Below are positions 25,805-29,515 of a stretch of DNA of 49,815 nt, one piece after another. Position 1 is the stretch's first letter. Each line of letters starts with the position of its first letter. Made by a program: the position numbers and the translations under genes. The notes under the pieces were generated by a model, which ran no database searches, was not told the DNA's origin, and saw nothing but the letters and a program-made list of their open reading frames with translations. This stretch comes from Candidatus Rokuibacteriota bacterium (GTDB lineage: Bacteria; Methylomirabilota; Methylomirabilia; Rokubacteriales; CSP1-6). The stretch lies in contig JACPCH010000021.1 in NCBI GenBank assembly GCA_016179875.1, forward strand, positions 1 through 49,815, in the 5' to 3' direction.

Positions 25805-26908
25805 TCAGCCCAGAGCCGGGAGAGCGAGGCCGTCAGGCGACGTCACGCCACCTCGGGGCTCCCACGCGCACAGCGGATCCTCGCCCAGCGCGTCGCCGGT
25901 CGCCGCGAACGCGCGGGCGCGCGAGCCGCCGCACAGCGCGTGGAACCCGCACGCGCCGCAGCGGCCGTGGAACCGCTCGGGCGCGCGCAGGTCCCGGAAG
26001 AGCGCGGCGTCGCGGTAGATCTCCAGCACGTCGCCCTCGCGGACGTTGCCGGCGGCGAGCGGCAGGAAGCCCGACGGCGTCACGTCGCCGTTCGCCGCGA
26101 TAAACAGGATCCCGTTGCCGTCGCGGATGCCGAAGCTCCGCGCGGCCGGGCTCTGGCGGATCTCCGCGCCGTTGGCGCCGCCGGCGCGCATCGCCTGGAC
26201 CAGGACCCGGCGCCAGTGGGGCGCCTCCGTCGTGGTCACCGCGAACGGCCACCCGGGGGCGCGGGCCGCCAGCCAGCGGAGCGTGGCCTCGCACTCGTCG
26301 GCGCCGAGCGGGCGCAGGGCCCGGCCGCGACCGACGGACACCAGGAAGAAGAGGCTCCAGCGGGCGGCGCCCATCCGGGCGACGACCCGGGCGATGGATT
26401 CCAGATCGGGCTCGGTCTCCGCGGTGACCAGCGTGTTGACCTGGAGCGGGATGCCGGCCGCCACGATCCGCTGCGCGGCCACGAGGGTCCAGCCGAAGCA
26501 GCCGTAGACGCCCCGGAGGCCGTCGTGGCGGGCCGGGCTCGACCCGTCGAGCGACAGCGACATCGCGCCCACGCCGGCCTCCTTGAGGGCGGACACCGTG
26601 TCCCGGCCGAGCGCCTGGGTCGCGCTCGGCGCCACCGCGACCGGCAGCCCGAGCCCGACCGCGTGCCGCACGAGCGGGAGGAGGTCGGGCCGCTTGAGCG
26701 GGTCGCCGCCCGTGAAGACGACGTGGGGCGCGGGCGCGCCCGCGGCGGCCAGCTGGTCCAGCACCCGCTCGCACTCCGCCGTCGTGAGCTCGCACGGCTC
26801 GCGCTCCTTCTGCGCCTCGGCGCGGCAGTGGCGGCAGGCGAGGTCGCAGGCCCGCGTGAGCTCCCAGTACACGCGGACGGGCGCCCGCGCGTACACGGGA
26901 GCCGGCAT
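25805..26908 (-). CDS. radical SAM / SPASM-domain enzyme (NirJ/AhbD-like architecture)
   Basis: Same frame as ORF 25805..27850, trimmed to ATG 26908. Radical SAM motif CDLACRHC in VYWELTRACDLACRHCRAEA. FFLVSVGRG. C-terminal auxiliary-cluster Cys motif GRCGACGFHALCGG. The start overlaps the gltA stop by 1 nt (TGATG). Confidence 0.9.
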   Translation of the reverse strand: MPAPVYARAPVRVYWELTRACDLACRHCRAEAQKEREPCELTTAECERVLDQLAAAGAPAPHVVFTGGDPLKRPDLLPLVRHAVGLGLPVAVAPSATQALGRDTVSALKEAGVGAMSLSLDGSSPARHDGLRGVYGCFGWTLVAAQRIVAAGIPLQVNTLVTAETEPDLESIARVVARMGAARWSLFFLVSVGRGRALRPLGADECEATLRWLAARAPGWPFAVTTTEAPHWRRVLVQAMRAGGANGAEIRQSPAARSFGIRDGNGILFIAANGDVTPSGFLPLAAGNVREGDVLEIYRDAALFRDLRAPERFHGRCGACGFHALCGGSRARAFAATGDALGEDPLCAWEPRGGVTSPDGLALPALG

Positions 26909-28197
26909 CACCGGCGTCCCATGGGCTTGAAGTCTCGGCACGCGGGGCCCGTGTAGATCTGGCGCGGCCGGGCGATCTTCTGCTCCGGGTCCCCCACCAT
27001 CTCCTGCCACTGGGCGAGCCAGCCGGCGGTGCGCGGGATGGCGAAGAGCACCGGGAACATCTCCACCGGGAACCCGAGCGCCTCGTAGATCAGCCCCGAG
27101 TAGAAGTCCACGTTCGGGTAGAGCTTGCGGGTCACGAAGTACTCGTCCTGGAGCGCGATGTGCTCCAGCTCGCGCGCGATCGGCAGCAGCGGGCTCGGCC
27201 GCGTGACGGCGAACACCTCGTCGGCCATCCGCTTGATGATCTTGGCGCGGGGATCGTAGTTCTTGTACACGCGATGCCCGAAGCCCATCAGCTTCGCCTC
27301 GCCCGCCTTCACCTGGCGGATGAACTCGGGGACGCGCGCCGGCGAGCCCACCGAGCGCAGCATCCGGAGCACGGCCTCGTTGGCCCCGCCGTGGAGCGGC
27401 CCGTAGAGGGCGGCCGCGGCGCCGGCGAGCGCGGAGTACGGATCCACGCCGGAGGAGCCGACGGAGCGCATGGCGTTGGTCGAGCAGTTCTGCTCGTGGT
27501 CGGCGTGCAGGATGAAGAGCACGTCGAGGGCGCGCTCGATCGCCGGGTCGGCCTTGTACTTGAGCTCGGTCGTCTTGAACAGCATGTTGAGGAAGTTGCC
27601 GGCGTACGACAGGTCGTTGTCGGGGTACGCGTACGCCTGGCCGAGGATGTGCCGGTAGGCGAACGCGGCGATCGTCGGCACCTTCGCGATCAGGCGGAGG
27701 ATCTGCAGATCGCGGTGGCCGGAATCGTGGTTCACCTTCGCGTCCGGATAGAAGGTCGAGAGGGCGGCGACCGTCGAGATGAACATGCCCATGGGATGGG
27801 CGTCGTGGTGGAAGCCGTCCATGAACTTCTTGACGTTCTCGTGCACCCACGTGTGGTGGGTGACCTGCCAGGTGAATTCGTCGAGCTCCTTCTGGGTCGG
27901 CAGCTCGCCGCGGAGGATCAGGTACGCGACCTCGAGAAACGTGGCGTGCTCGGCCAGCTGCTCGATCGGGTAGCCCCGGTACCAGAGGATCCCCTTGTCG
28001 CCGTCGATGTACGTGATCGCGCTGCGCGTGGACGCGGTGTTGGTGAACGCCGGGTCGTAGGCGAGCAGGCCGAAGTCGTCCGGCCCGGTCTTGATCTGGC
28101 GCAGGTCCATCGCCCGGATCGCGCCGTCGGCGACCGGCACCTCGTAGGACTTGCCGGTCCGGTTGTCGACGATGGTGAGGGTCTCCTTCGTGCTCAT
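26908..28197 (-). CDS. gltA: citrate synthase (type II, GltA-like)
   Basis: Same frame as ORF 26908..28380, trimmed to ATG 28197. 429 aa with ILHADHEQNCST, GPLHGGANE and GFGHRVYKNYDPR catalytic motifs. Confidence 0.95.
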   Translation of the reverse strand: MSTKETLTIVDNRTGKSYEVPVADGAIRAMDLRQIKTGPDDFGLLAYDPAFTNTASTRSAITYIDGDKGILWYRGYPIEQLAEHATFLEVAYLILRGELPTQKELDEFTWQVTHHTWVHENVKKFMDGFHHDAHPMGMFISTVAALSTFYPDAKVNHDSGHRDLQILRLIAKVPTIAAFAYRHILGQAYAYPDNDLSYAGNFLNMLFKTTELKYKADPAIERALDVLFILHADHEQNCSTNAMRSVGSSGVDPYSALAGAAAALYGPLHGGANEAVLRMLRSVGSPARVPEFIRQVKAGEAKLMGFGHRVYKNYDPRAKIIKRMADEVFAVTRPSPLLPIARELEHIALQDEYFVTRKLYPNVDFYSGLIYEALGFPVEMFPVLFAIPRTAGWLAQWQEMVGDPEQKIARPRQIYTGPACRDFKPMGRR

Positions 28198-28433
28198 GAC
28201 GCGCCTCCCGTCTGAAGCCAGTGGCGGTAGGTGAGACAGCCGTGGTGGCAGCCGGTGGTGCAGAACCACGCGAACTCGTCCGCGGAGGGAACGCACAGCG
28301 GTCCCAGACGGAGCCGGCAGGTGAACCCGTGCGGATAGCTGTGCTCGAGGTCGCCGTCCACGGCGACGAGGAACGGGCATCCGGTGGACACGTTCCCGGA
28401 ATCGATCGGGACGGAACGGTCGGTCGCGATCAT
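28194..28433 (-). CDS. Cys/His-rich CPFL-motif protein 2 (79 aa, hypothetical)
   Basis: Same frame as ORF 28194..28637, trimmed to ATG 28433 (GGGAGG upstream). MIATDRSVPIDSGNVSTGCPFLVAVDGDLEHSYPHGFTCRLRLGPLCVPSADEFAWFCTTGCHHGCLTYRHWLQTGGAS, with 6 Cys. The stop overlaps the gltA start (ATGA). High GC3. Confidence 0.6.
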   Translation of the reverse strand: MIATDRSVPIDSGNVSTGCPFLVAVDGDLEHSYPHGFTCRLRLGPLCVPSADEFAWFCTTGCHHGCLTYRHWLQTGGAS

Positions 28434-28435
28434 GG

Positions 28436-28660
28436 TCAGCCTCCCTGCGGCGGCGCGCCGGTCGGGGCGCCCGCGCTCGCCTGGTACCGCCCGCACGCGA
28501 GGTAGGCGCGCGTGACGCACACGCCCGCGAGGGTGGCCGGCGCCGGGACCCGCACGCTCTGGCCCGGGCGGTGGCAGTACATCCCGACCGGATACAGCCA
28601 GAGCCGGTCCGCGATCACCGGAACCAGAAAGGGGCACCGGTCGTCGGGTTCGCTCGTCAT
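28436..28660 (-). CDS. Cys-rich CPFL-motif protein 1 (74 aa, hypothetical)
   Basis: MTSEPDDRCPFLVPVIADRLWLYPVGMYCHRPGQSVRVPAPATLAGVCVTRAYLACGRYQASAGAPTGAPPQGG, with 4 Cys. GGAGGAGGG upstream. High GC3. The stop lies 2 nt before the paralog start. Confidence 0.6.
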   Translation of the reverse strand: MTSEPDDRCPFLVPVIADRLWLYPVGMYCHRPGQSVRVPAPATLAGVCVTRAYLACGRYQASAGAPTGAPPQGG

Positions 28661-28688
28661 CGCGTCCCTCCTCCGGCGGCGCCCGCCC

Positions 28689-29450
28689 TCACGGGAGGCT
28701 CCGCCCGTTCGTGCGCCAGTGGATGACGGCCGCGCGCTTCCGGAACGGCGCGATCCACTCCCCGTCGGCGCGCCGCAGGCGCGCGGCCAGGAAGCCGCGC
28801 AGGAACGCGCGCGGCGCCTCGCCCTGGAGCCGCATGTACTCCATCCAGAAGTCGCACGCCTCGTCGAGCGAGTCGAACGGCTGGTCGGAGTCGTACTCGA
28901 TCGCCGTCACCGTGGGCCGCACGCCGAGCCGCGCCAGCTCGTCGAGCGCCTCGTCGGCGTCGCAGCCGTGCTCGTACGGCCGGCCGAGGAGGCGCGGGTA
29001 GAGCTCGCCGAAGAAGAACTTGTCGCCGCCGGGCACGTCGCGCACGAGCGCGACGCCCCGCCGGGCGACGGCGCCGGCCTCGCGGAGGAAGGACGCGCCG
29101 CGCTTCACGAGGGGGCTCACGTGGGCGCAGACGACGAGATCGTGCGGCGCGACGGGCGCCGCCCCCCACGCCGCCTCCATCACGGTCAGGCGGGCGAGCC
29201 CCTCCCGCCCGGCGGCGCGCGCGAGCGCCGCCGCCATCGCGGGCGCGGGCTCGAGCGCGGTCACGACGAGGCCGCGCCGCGCGAGCGGCAGCGCGAGGGC
29301 GCCGAAGCCGGCGCCGACGTCGAGCGCGCTCGTCGAGCCCGCCAGCAGGTCGGCGAGCGCGGCGAGGACCTTCGGGGCGTAGTCGCTCCGCGCGTTCGCC
29401 CGCTCGTACCAGGCGACCGTCCGCGCGTTCCAGAGATCGCCGCGGCTCAG
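28689..29450 (-). CDS. class I SAM-dependent methyltransferase (start codon unresolved)
   Basis: SAM motif ALDVGAGFGALALPLA about 40 aa into the frame. The coding-like third-position bias of this frame begins only near 29450, where the only candidate start is CTG. The ORF-track start at 29696 would add about 80 aa of non-coding-looking sequence that contains a sigma54 promoter. Confidence 0.75.
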   Translation of the reverse strand: MSRGDLWNARTVAWYERANARSDYAPKVLAALADLLAGSTSALDVGAGFGALALPLARRGLVVTALEPAPAMAAALARAAGREGLARLTVMEAAWGAAPVAPHDLVVCAHVSPLVKRGASFLREAGAVARRGVALVRDVPGGDKFFFGELYPRLLGRPYEHGCDADEALDELARLGVRPTVTAIEYDSDQPFDSLDEACDFWMEYMRLQGEAPRAFLRGFLAARLRRADGEWIAPFRKRAAVIHWRTNGRSLP

Positions 29451-29515
29451 CGCCGCTCGACCAGGCAGATCCGGACCTTCCCTTCCTGCGCCAGCATGGA
29501 CCCGATCGCGATCAT
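29447..29515 (-). CDS. 22-codon leader ORF (MIAIGSMLAQEGKVRICLVERR), or the displaced true N-terminus of the methyltransferase
   Basis: AGGAGG 6 nt upstream of ATG 29515. 20 of 21 codons end in G/C. Its TGA overlaps the CTG at the head of the methyltransferase frame (CTGA). It sits about 40 nt downstream of the sigma54 promoter. Confidence 0.35.
   Translation of the reverse strand: MIAIGSMLAQEGKVRICLVERR

Follow-up and report, generated by a model that had tools for sequence, protein, structure and literature searches.

Citrate synthase coupled to a predicted oxygen-independent heme synthase in a proposed sigma-54-type stress module of Candidatus Rokuibacteriota

In a 49,815-nt stretch of DNA from a Candidatus Rokuibacteriota bacterium (contig JACPCH010000021.1 of assembly GCA_016179875.1; hereafter the window, with a G+C content of ~73%), the gene for a type II, GltA-type citrate synthase is flanked by genes for two small four-Cys proteins, CPFL-1 and CPFL-2, on its 5′ side and by the gene for a radical S-adenosylmethionine (SAM)/SPASM enzyme on its 3′ side. 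We read this locus, with moderate confidence, as a sigma-54-controlled stress module, probably serving low-oxygen conditions, in which a canonical citrate synthase is expressed together with an AhbD-like heme synthase that works without oxygen and with four-Cys accessory proteins. The module is typical of the Methylomirabilota/Rokubacteria and, as predicted from sequence, would not constitute a new biosynthetic pathway; the enzyme activities and the inducing signal named here are predictions, as are the roles proposed for the CPFL proteins and the accompanying methyltransferase. Contrary to the hope expressed in an earlier interpretation of the same DNA from its letters alone (the sequence-only reading), no new natural-product class is opened by the locus. 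The coupling of citrate synthase to four-Cys proteins leads instead to testable hypotheses on the electron partner of AhbD-type enzymes, on redox control of entry into the tricarboxylic acid (TCA) cycle, and on how uncultured soil and groundwater Rokubacteria handle oxygen swings.

The module lies on the minus strand, and each element of the order given by the sequence-only reading was recovered. A sigma-54-type −24/−12 promoter (TGGCACGCGGGTTGC, 29556..29570), which matches the consensus exactly, is followed by a 22-codon open reading frame (ORF; MIAIGSMLAQEGKVRICLVERR, 29447..29515) with an AGGAGG Shine-Dalgarno site in front of it, the frame of a class I SAM-dependent methyltransferase (28689..29450; Pfam Methyltransf_11/25), CPFL-1 (28436..28660; 74 aa with four invariant Cys, matched by the CPFL hidden Markov model, HMM), CPFL-2 (28194..28433; 79 aa, likewise with four invariant Cys in the CPFL alignment), the citrate synthase (26908..28197; 429 aa; NF004126 and TIGR01798), and finally the AhbD/NirJ-like radical SAM/SPASM enzyme of the TIGR04053 family (25805..26908; 367 aa). 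Both gene overlaps described earlier are exact: the citrate synthase ATG (28197-28195) overlaps the CPFL-2 TGA (28196-28194) as ATGA, and base 26908 belongs both to the citrate synthase TGA and to the ATG of the radical SAM gene, which together read TGATG. These start/stop overlaps and the promoter upstream bear out the proposal of one operon, with coupled translation, under a sigma-54-type promoter.

The citrate synthase and radical SAM genes are neighbors in ~30 fetched loci, mostly from Methylomirabilota/Rokubacteria and including near-duplicates (L003, L004, L008, L090, and L091), so that locus counts somewhat overstate the independent observations. Because this synteny recurs in ~30 loci, the chance adjacency that the sequence-only reading had held out as an alternative is excluded, and comparison among the loci marks the adjacency as real and old, far beyond chance. 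In a survey of the radical SAM family that scanned one genome per species (80 loci, with neighbor genes clustered and representatives scanned), citrate synthase adjoins the radical SAM enzyme in 16 Methylomirabilota/Rokubacteria loci and in two loci labeled Binatia and Syntrophobacteraceae, and ~60 of the 80 loci, from other phyla, have no citrate synthase within 10 kb of the radical SAM gene. Two arrangements are found, namely CPFL-2, citrate synthase, radical SAM in the Rokubacteria and CPFL-2, radical SAM, citrate synthase on a 5.6-Mb contig; the swapped order occurs in L005, L013, L029, and L038 and the usual one in the remaining loci, while L089, found from its citrate synthase, has a window-like arrangement. 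The identities of the two proteins to their counterparts in the window co-vary (r = 0.94, 28 loci), the linkage is retained down to 54% radical SAM identity, and the citrate synthase-linked radical SAM enzymes are spread over at least four clades of their tree, which, like that of citrate synthase, was built by neighbor joining without support values.

One locus, L087, holds the pair in a different setting. There, the citrate synthase is followed by a radical SAM gene that is split by a frameshift or an assembly error (8287-9329), amid genes for acyl-CoA ligases and ABC transporters. The gene call after the citrate synthase yields a 250-aa product with no Pfam match, and the locus was rejected as a case of unlinked citrate synthase when tblastn showed the frameshifted radical SAM gene directly downstream. 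Because L087 holds both genes in an unrelated neighborhood, the pair is judged from these comparisons to move as a unit. The suspicion of the sequence-only reading that the combination is undescribed is matched by the literature: no paper describing it was found, and searches on citrate synthase with radical SAM/SPASM, on heme synthase with citrate synthase, and on Rokubacteria with heme gave nothing relevant.

Such a distribution might in principle reflect inheritance and nothing else, whereby the lineage's sole housekeeping gltA came to lie beside a heme radical SAM gene in a Methylomirabilota ancestor and the pair persisted without function. The near-confinement of the linkage to one phylum plus the two loci labeled Binatia and Syntrophobacteraceae agrees with this, as do the co-varying divergence of the two proteins, which vertical co-inheritance predicts, and the occurrence of same-clade citrate synthases without the radical SAM gene (L088 and P0237). 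However, the existence of both gene orders, the varied neighborhoods exemplified by L087, the sigma-54 promoter found repeatedly directly upstream, the overlapping stop and start codons, and a linkage that holds to 54% radical SAM identity together indicate selection for co-expression, and inheritance alone is considered unlikely, if far from negligible.

The radical SAM enzyme scores 422.8 bits on TIGR04053 (cut-off 395) and is thus a member of this curated equivalog. The next best models are AhbD (TIGR04545; 283.2 bits), NirJ2 (181), and NirJ (141); with 283.2 bits against a cut-off of 500, the enzyme falls in a sister family and is not AhbD sensu stricto. Its CX3CX2C motif (C21/C25/C28) and its CX2CX5CX20C motif (C317/C320/C326/C347) are invariant in 17 homologues, and a C-terminal auxiliary-cluster motif of this type is the one given for NirJ (PMC10114771). 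The Pfam SPASM match, at 20.3 bits, is under the gathering score of 21.5. AhbD, the best-characterized relative at 283 bits, has the same CX3CX2C core and C-terminal CX2CX5C...C motif, whereas the window enzyme belongs to a separate equivalog, is located away from heme genes, and is coupled to citrate synthase.

A peptide-modifying role, which the sequence-only reading had entertained, finds little in this protein to recommend it. Models of peptide maturases are far under their cut-offs, whether PqqE (109 bits, cut-off 381), MftC (108, 265), the GDL-motif maturase (109, 592), or StsB (104, 625), and sactipeptide/ranthipeptide and other maturase models reach ~100 bits against cut-offs of 265-725. 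No PqqD/RRE domain was matched with Pfam in any protein of the operon, and because the Pfam Radical_SAM domain begins at residue 16, no space is left for an N-terminal peptide-recognition domain; these scores and the TIGR04053 membership argue against modification of peptides. Besides its own 98% copy, the enzyme is 68–80% identical to its 119 best matches, of which the few named by source are from NC10, Rokubacteria, Methylomirabilota, and Candidatus Acidoferrum, conservation at a level more to be expected of a core enzyme than of a peptide maturase.

The case for heme comes from the company that TIGR04053 keeps in other lineages. In ~20 of the 80 species genomes, including those of Armatimonadota, Chloroflexota/Thermoflexus, and Bipolaricaulia, the gene is embedded in a heme operon with such partners as porphobilinogen synthase hemB (498 bits), uroporphyrinogen-III synthase hemD, glutamate-1-semialdehyde aminomutase hemL (604 bits), uroporphyrinogen decarboxylase hemE (402 bits), and a HemY/CgoX-type oxidase. 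Four radical SAM enzymes from other loci, of which three are encoded in heme operons, reach 440–462 bits on TIGR04053 and belong to the same equivalog as that of the window, and among the neighbors in the remaining phyla are HemY-like amine oxidases, cytochromes c, hemerythrins, CBS proteins, and a heme peroxidase. In 12 loci, a HemQ/ChdC-like gene stands with TIGR04053 in one heme operon (L033, L042, L047, L049, L050, L056, L062, L067, L074, L078, L082, and L086), and this coexistence suggests, by analogy with HemN/HemF, paired oxygen-independent and oxygen-dependent coproheme decarboxylases.

AhbD homologues have been noted in organisms that use the coproporphyrin pathway but have none of the other Ahb genes (reviewed in PMC13564367), and an AhbD-like radical SAM enzyme "might be responsible" for the anaerobic conversion of coproheme to heme b in place of ChdC (PMC10114771). 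TIGR04053, for which no published biochemistry was found, fits this postulated role by sequence and context and is the obvious candidate for the "AhbD-like" enzyme proposed in the anaerobic heme synthesis of coproporphyrin-pathway bacteria; several phyla have it next to ChdC, CgoX, and HemE in their heme operons, and in the Methylomirabilota it has shifted to a sigma-54-controlled stress island. The window enzyme is most likely an oxygen-independent coproheme decarboxylase (heme b synthase), as predicted from its family. Placement in a heme-pathway clade, which the sequence-only reading had named as an outcome that would speak against its own proposal, holds at the family level.

The citrate synthase, for its part, conforms to its class in every respect compared. 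It exceeds the cut-offs of two curated equivalogs (NF004126, 591.2 bits against 505; TIGR01798, 559 against 485), aligns over its full length with solved citrate synthases at 460–530 bits, best with a plant peroxisomal enzyme, and retains intact the catalytic His/His/Asp motifs HADHEQNCST, GFGHRVYKNYDPR (GFGHRVYK), and PNVDFYSG, which align with those of a solved citrate synthase. It is also better conserved than the radical SAM enzyme (mean identity to the window 83% vs. 72%). Two copies of ~83% identity, out of three first scored as unlinked, have no adjoining radical SAM gene (L088 and P0237). Because such unlinked copies nest among the linked ones in the neighbor-joining tree, no distinct "recruited" subfamily is discernible, and the enzyme is classed from its sequence as canonical. 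No second copy is present in the 49.8-kb window. A GltA-type gene is usually monocistronic. The window enzyme resembles the GltA of E. coli and Acetobacter aceti and GltA2 of M. tuberculosis in full-length match, catalytic motifs, and equivalog scores, but its gene overlaps that of a small Cys protein at the 5′ side and that of a radical SAM enzyme at the 3′ side, behind a sigma-54 promoter.

These properties bear directly on the recruitment that the sequence-only reading had envisaged, in which the citrate synthase makes a citrate-derived or acyl-CoA condensation product to be tailored by the radical SAM enzyme and the methyltransferase into a small molecule, cofactor, or modified peptide. 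The tight translational coupling, the adjacency conserved in both orders, the movement of the pair as a unit, and the lack of any description found in the literature lend this scenario some appeal. It is at odds, however, with a citrate synthase that satisfies curated equivalogs with all catalytic motifs kept, is the more conserved of the pair, and forms no separate clade when linked, as well as with the heme-clade placement of the radical SAM enzyme and with a cluster that shows no precursor-peptide architecture and no gene for a transporter, a ligase, or other tailoring enzymes. Neither the recruited enzyme nor the pathway built around it is sustained by this evidence, and the scenario is rated as very improbable.

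Regulation by sigma-54 appears to be as much a part of the module as its enzymes. The sole exact match to TGGCAC-N5-TTGC in the window is the one at 29556-29570, where 0.06 would be expected, and 6 of 100 shuffles of the window reach one match. Among 32 related loci, 18 have a sigma-54-type element with at most one mismatch no more than 450 nt upstream of the module, compared with 0.7 expected, and these include swapped-order loci, Binatia-type loci, and the transposed locus L087; because of this recurrence, sigma-54 control is regarded, on comparative grounds, as a conserved property of the citrate synthase–radical SAM unit. Neither a sigma-70-like promoter nor a minus-strand intrinsic terminator was found in 25300-30600.

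A candidate activator is encoded on the same strand in the form of an NtrC/AtoC-type sigma-54 enhancer-binding protein with receiver, AAA+, and HTH_8 parts (34289..35677; Pfam Response_reg, Sigma54_activat at 237.7 bits, and HTH_8), whose NCBIfam AtoC and NtrC matches are under cut-off. Its presumed partner is a PAS-HisKA-HATPase sensor histidine kinase (35689..37335, minus strand; Pfam PAS_4, HisKA, and HATPase_c). Homologues of the enhancer-binding protein lie near the module in L015, L020, L089, L092, and L095, and the kinase–activator pair is also upstream of it in L089 and L095. Closer to the module, a stand-alone response-regulator receiver of 121 aa without an output domain (29686..30051, minus strand; Pfam Response_reg, 77.4 bits) occupies a position directly upstream of the promoter that is conserved among related loci, and together with the gene of a CBS-pair protein (30048..30452, minus strand; Pfam CBS, 115.8 bits) it forms a pair that precedes the module in L004, L008, L009, L089, L092, and L095-L097. 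Directly downstream of the module is a PAS-LuxR(GerE) one-component regulator (24775..25413, minus strand; Pfam PAS_9 and GerE), whose gene is also 3′ of the radical SAM gene in L009, L022, L024, L025, and L089 and 3′ of the citrate synthase gene in L094.

In the mechanism that we propose, the PAS histidine kinase and the NtrC-type activator, encoded 5–8 kb upstream, would presumably turn on the promoter at 29556-29570, and a single transcript would yield the methyltransferase, the two four-Cys proteins, a normal citrate synthase, and the TIGR04053 enzyme. The last of these would perform the AhbD reaction, that is, the SAM-dependent, oxygen-independent decarboxylation of coproheme to heme b, and would thereby substitute for the peroxide-dependent ChdC when oxygen is scarce. 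The heme so made could serve the adjacent heme-copper oxidase and possibly heme-based sensors. Citrate synthase would carry out its usual reaction; in sister genomes, it would be co-expressed with pyruvate:ferredoxin oxidoreductase (PFOR), and the two together would let carbon enter the TCA cycle without oxygen-adapted dehydrogenases.

Several observations weigh against this low-oxygen heme reading. The window contains no heme biosynthesis gene, and in none of the Methylomirabilota loci examined is the radical SAM gene next to heme genes; because of this, the heme assignment depends on orthology at 50–58% identity and on the gene context seen in other phyla. The low-oxygen signal is read from gene content alone, and NtrC-type activators answer many signals. 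Co-regulation alone offers no obvious explanation of why citrate synthase and the radical SAM enzyme adjoin in both orders and moved jointly in L087. Finally, the CPFL-2 gene is very tightly linked to those of both enzymes, a closeness that points to functional ties more direct than a common stimulus.

The CPFL proteins thus merit separate consideration. CPFL-1 and CPFL-2 are paralogues (35% identity over 52 aa, E = 2e-7) and have no match in Pfam or NCBIfam. A word-indexed homologue search with CPFL-2 returned a 96% identical copy as its sole match, and an exhaustive search of 1.8 billion cluster representatives returned 31 matches, of which P0133 (2481 aa, 18 matched stretches) and the Thr-rich repeat protein P0147 look spurious. 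Across 40 aligned sequences, C19-P20, C39, C58, and C66 of CPFL-2 are invariant and L22, P34, P49, and Y69 nearly so, the four Cys falling in a domain of ~60 residues. Kinship with TusA-like (CPxP), WhiB-like, HiPIP, rubredoxin, or CP12 proteins was rejected, as there is no HMM match and the Cys spacing differs. An AlphaFold2 model of CPFL-2 from 26 sequences has a pLDDT of 66, and Foldseek found no match to it in the PDB.

In their distribution, the HMM matches are limited to Methylomirabilota-type loci, with none in loci of other types. CPFL-2-type genes lie directly 5′ of citrate synthase or the radical SAM gene, and CPFL-1-type genes directly 3′ of a PFOR beta gene (L004, L008, L025, and L076). 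A motif scan of metagenomes, built on a narrow CPFL-2 set and hence biased towards that type, gave 16 loci, in 13 of which citrate synthase or the radical SAM gene comes directly next, while the other three contigs end too soon. In L094 (50-2645), the only such case, CPFL-2, citrate synthase, and the PAS-LuxR gene follow one another with no radical SAM gene between, and L014 (8308-8535) has a CPFL-2-like ORF upstream of citrate synthase that has lost two of the four invariant Cys and is possibly a decaying copy. Because several citrate synthase–radical SAM loci (L013, L016, L019, L020, and L026) have no CPFL in their fetched flanks (≤10 kb), CPFL is judged from gene content to be a module-tied accessory and not an obligate substrate of the radical SAM enzyme. 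The proteins are probably metal-binding or redox-active, and candidate roles are a metal/Fe-S electron carrier for the radical SAM enzyme and PFOR or a thiol switch on these enzymes; that the invariant Cys-Pro is a heme-regulatory "CP" motif is speculation.

SPASM enzymes often modify Cys-rich peptides and small proteins, and in quinohemoprotein amine dehydrogenase the gamma subunit QhpC, with its four Cys, is crosslinked by the SPASM radical SAM enzyme QhpD. CPFL-2, and perhaps CPFL-1, might by the same token be the substrate of the radical SAM enzyme, and possibly of the methyltransferase too, receiving thioether or other crosslinks on its four Cys; by analogy with QhpD/QhpC, the matured protein could then serve citrate synthase or PFOR, either as a regulator or as a cofactor-like subunit. 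Four invariant Cys in a domain of ~60 residues, the lack of any family or fold match, a methyltransferase repeatedly beside CPFL genes, and the citrate synthase–radical SAM pair or the radical SAM gene directly after CPFL-2 in 13 of 16 motif loci, often with overlapping stop and start codons, are what such a system might present. Yet the same equivalog includes enzymes in heme operons without CPFL, and an RRE/PqqD domain is lacking and the maturase models remain far under cut-off. The five CPFL-free loci, the coupling of CPFL-1-type genes to PFOR beta rather than to the radical SAM gene, and the occurrence of CPFL-2 with citrate synthase without the radical SAM gene in L094 likewise tell against it. 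Like the QhpD/QhpC and SCIFF-type ranthipeptide systems, the window places a small, conserved Cys-rich protein gene beside that of a SPASM-domain radical SAM enzyme; unlike them, it shows no sequence relation, RRE, protease, or exporter, its radical SAM enzyme is in the tetrapyrrole clade, and CPFL is not constant. A crosslinked substrate is less likely than an electron carrier or thiol redox switch, and the proposal as a whole is considered quite improbable.

A further, doubtful idea is that the CPFL proteins, small and with four Cys, form a new class that ties the enzymes of the module together physically, with two options for CPFL-2. It might be the electron partner, acceptor or donor, that the AhbD-like heme synthase still lacks, and CPFL-1 would then serve PFOR; the electron acceptor of AhbD-type enzymes is still not known (PMC10114771). 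Or it might be crosslinked by the radical SAM enzyme, methylated by the methyltransferase, and then bind citrate synthase as a switch of its activity in response to redox state. If either option were true, the pairing of citrate synthase and the radical SAM enzyme would reflect a real complex, not shared regulation, and a ferredoxin-driven, possibly reversible step of TCA entry in the Rokubacteria could follow. A parallel is offered by CP12, a small redox switch with four Cys that is conditionally disordered and has GAPDH and PRK as its binding partners. CPFL is alike in having ~80 aa, four Cys, a low-confidence structure, and genes beside those of central-carbon enzymes, whereas it has no match to Pfam CP12 and another Cys spacing, and its binding to citrate synthase or PFOR is pure conjecture.

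The start of the operon required two corrections to the sequence-only reading, one on the leader and one on the methyltransferase start. The short "leader ORF" is present, but homology at both the DNA and the protein level links its last ~16 codons to the end of a 73-aa winged-helix gene (64% over 25 aa), of which the Rokubacteria loci L004 and L008 carry intact copies. DNA conservation with the end of this gene begins only at the ATGCTGGCGCAGGA stretch, upstream of which the window has the sigma-54 promoter and a new ribosome-binding site in place of the winged-helix gene. By this homology, the 22-codon ORF is identified as a relic of the 3′ end of the winged-helix gene, and its ribosomes may be passed on to the methyltransferase start. 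The methyltransferase frame has no in-frame ATG, GTG, or TTG downstream of the promoter. Its start is probably the CTG at 29450-29448, the only conserved candidate, which overlaps the TGA of the 22-codon ORF as CTGA; in L008, too, a CTG overlaps the upstream TGA in this way, and the overlap suggests reinitiation at a non-canonical start. NCBIfam matches of the methyltransferase are generic and all far under cut-off. Orthologues of 67–71% identity adjoin CPFL or PFOR genes in L004, L008, L012, L091, and L103, and L100 has a near-identical copy (97%).

The module is embedded in what resembles a stress island. Upstream in the window are the histidine kinase and enhancer-binding protein, universal stress proteins, an APH-type phosphotransferase, a tandem APS-kinase-like protein, and the CBS protein, and downstream are the PAS-LuxR regulator, then a heme-copper oxidase operon on the plus strand, and a P-type cation ATPase. 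Genes of this kind (universal stress proteins, HSP20, CBS, receiver, PAS-LuxR, P-type ATPase, PFOR, and oxidase genes) recur reshuffled in Methylomirabilota loci, and the pair of APH and double APS-kinase-like genes is part of the same mosaic. The make-up of the mycobacterial DosR dormancy regulon (universal stress proteins, alpha-crystallin, CBS, CtpF) is similar, and oxygen-independent hemN genes are part of the Anr/Dnr and FixK2 low-oxygen regulons. The module is like these in placing an oxygen-independent tetrapyrrole enzyme amid stress and respiration genes, namely those for universal stress proteins, HSP20, CBS proteins, a P-type ATPase, a LuxR-type regulator, and a terminal oxidase. In contrast to regulons controlled by FNR/CRP or DosR, it appears to use sigma-54 and an NtrC-type activator, and it adds citrate synthase and the four-Cys family.

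In the Rokubacteria, split PFOR-like genes are located between the methyltransferase and CPFL-1. The split PFOR-like 2-oxoacid:ferredoxin oxidoreductase occupies 1694-5743 of L004 and is also present in L008, L022, L025, L076, L090, and L091; a CBS protein gene lies between its two subunit genes, which run in the same direction as CPFL-1, CPFL-2, citrate synthase, and the radical SAM gene. A ferredoxin-linked route from pyruvate to citrate in the Rokubacteria is a possibility.

Among the neighboring genes, the divergent heme-copper oxidase operon (~20480-24767, plus strand) begins just past the PAS-LuxR gene and comprises COX2, COX1, COX3, COX4, and a COX3-like gene; the 98%-identical locus L002 leads us to expect an Rrf2-type regulator gene in front of it, and L089 has a near-identical arrangement without the oxidase operon insertion. 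The protein with two tandem APS-kinase-like P-loop domains and the APH-type phosphotransferase coupled to it (30463-31590 and 31584-32684, minus strand) are found in the same island in L008, L009, L051, L088, and L089. In L038 and L029, the two citrate synthase–radical SAM loci outside the Methylomirabilota, a further gene separates the radical SAM and citrate synthase genes: in L038, a 268-aa membrane protein (4605-5411) that is VIT1/CCC1-like by eye and has no NCBIfam match, and in L029 a 114-aa protein (4443-4787) that is AhpD/CMD-like by eye.

Farther from the module, a minus-strand cluster at 7339-15813 encodes two HGD-D (2-hydroxyglutaryl-CoA dehydratase/benzoyl-CoA reductase-like) subunits, two BcrAD/BadFG ATPases, a 4Fe-4S ferredoxin, and three ORFs without a Pfam match, with a TetR regulator alongside, and looks like an ATP-dependent reductase or dehydratase system. 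At the right end of the window (43507-47977 and 48255-48896) are a KaiC-like ATPase fragment, a 1218-aa ORF with GAF and HD (HD_5) domains, and a LexA repressor.

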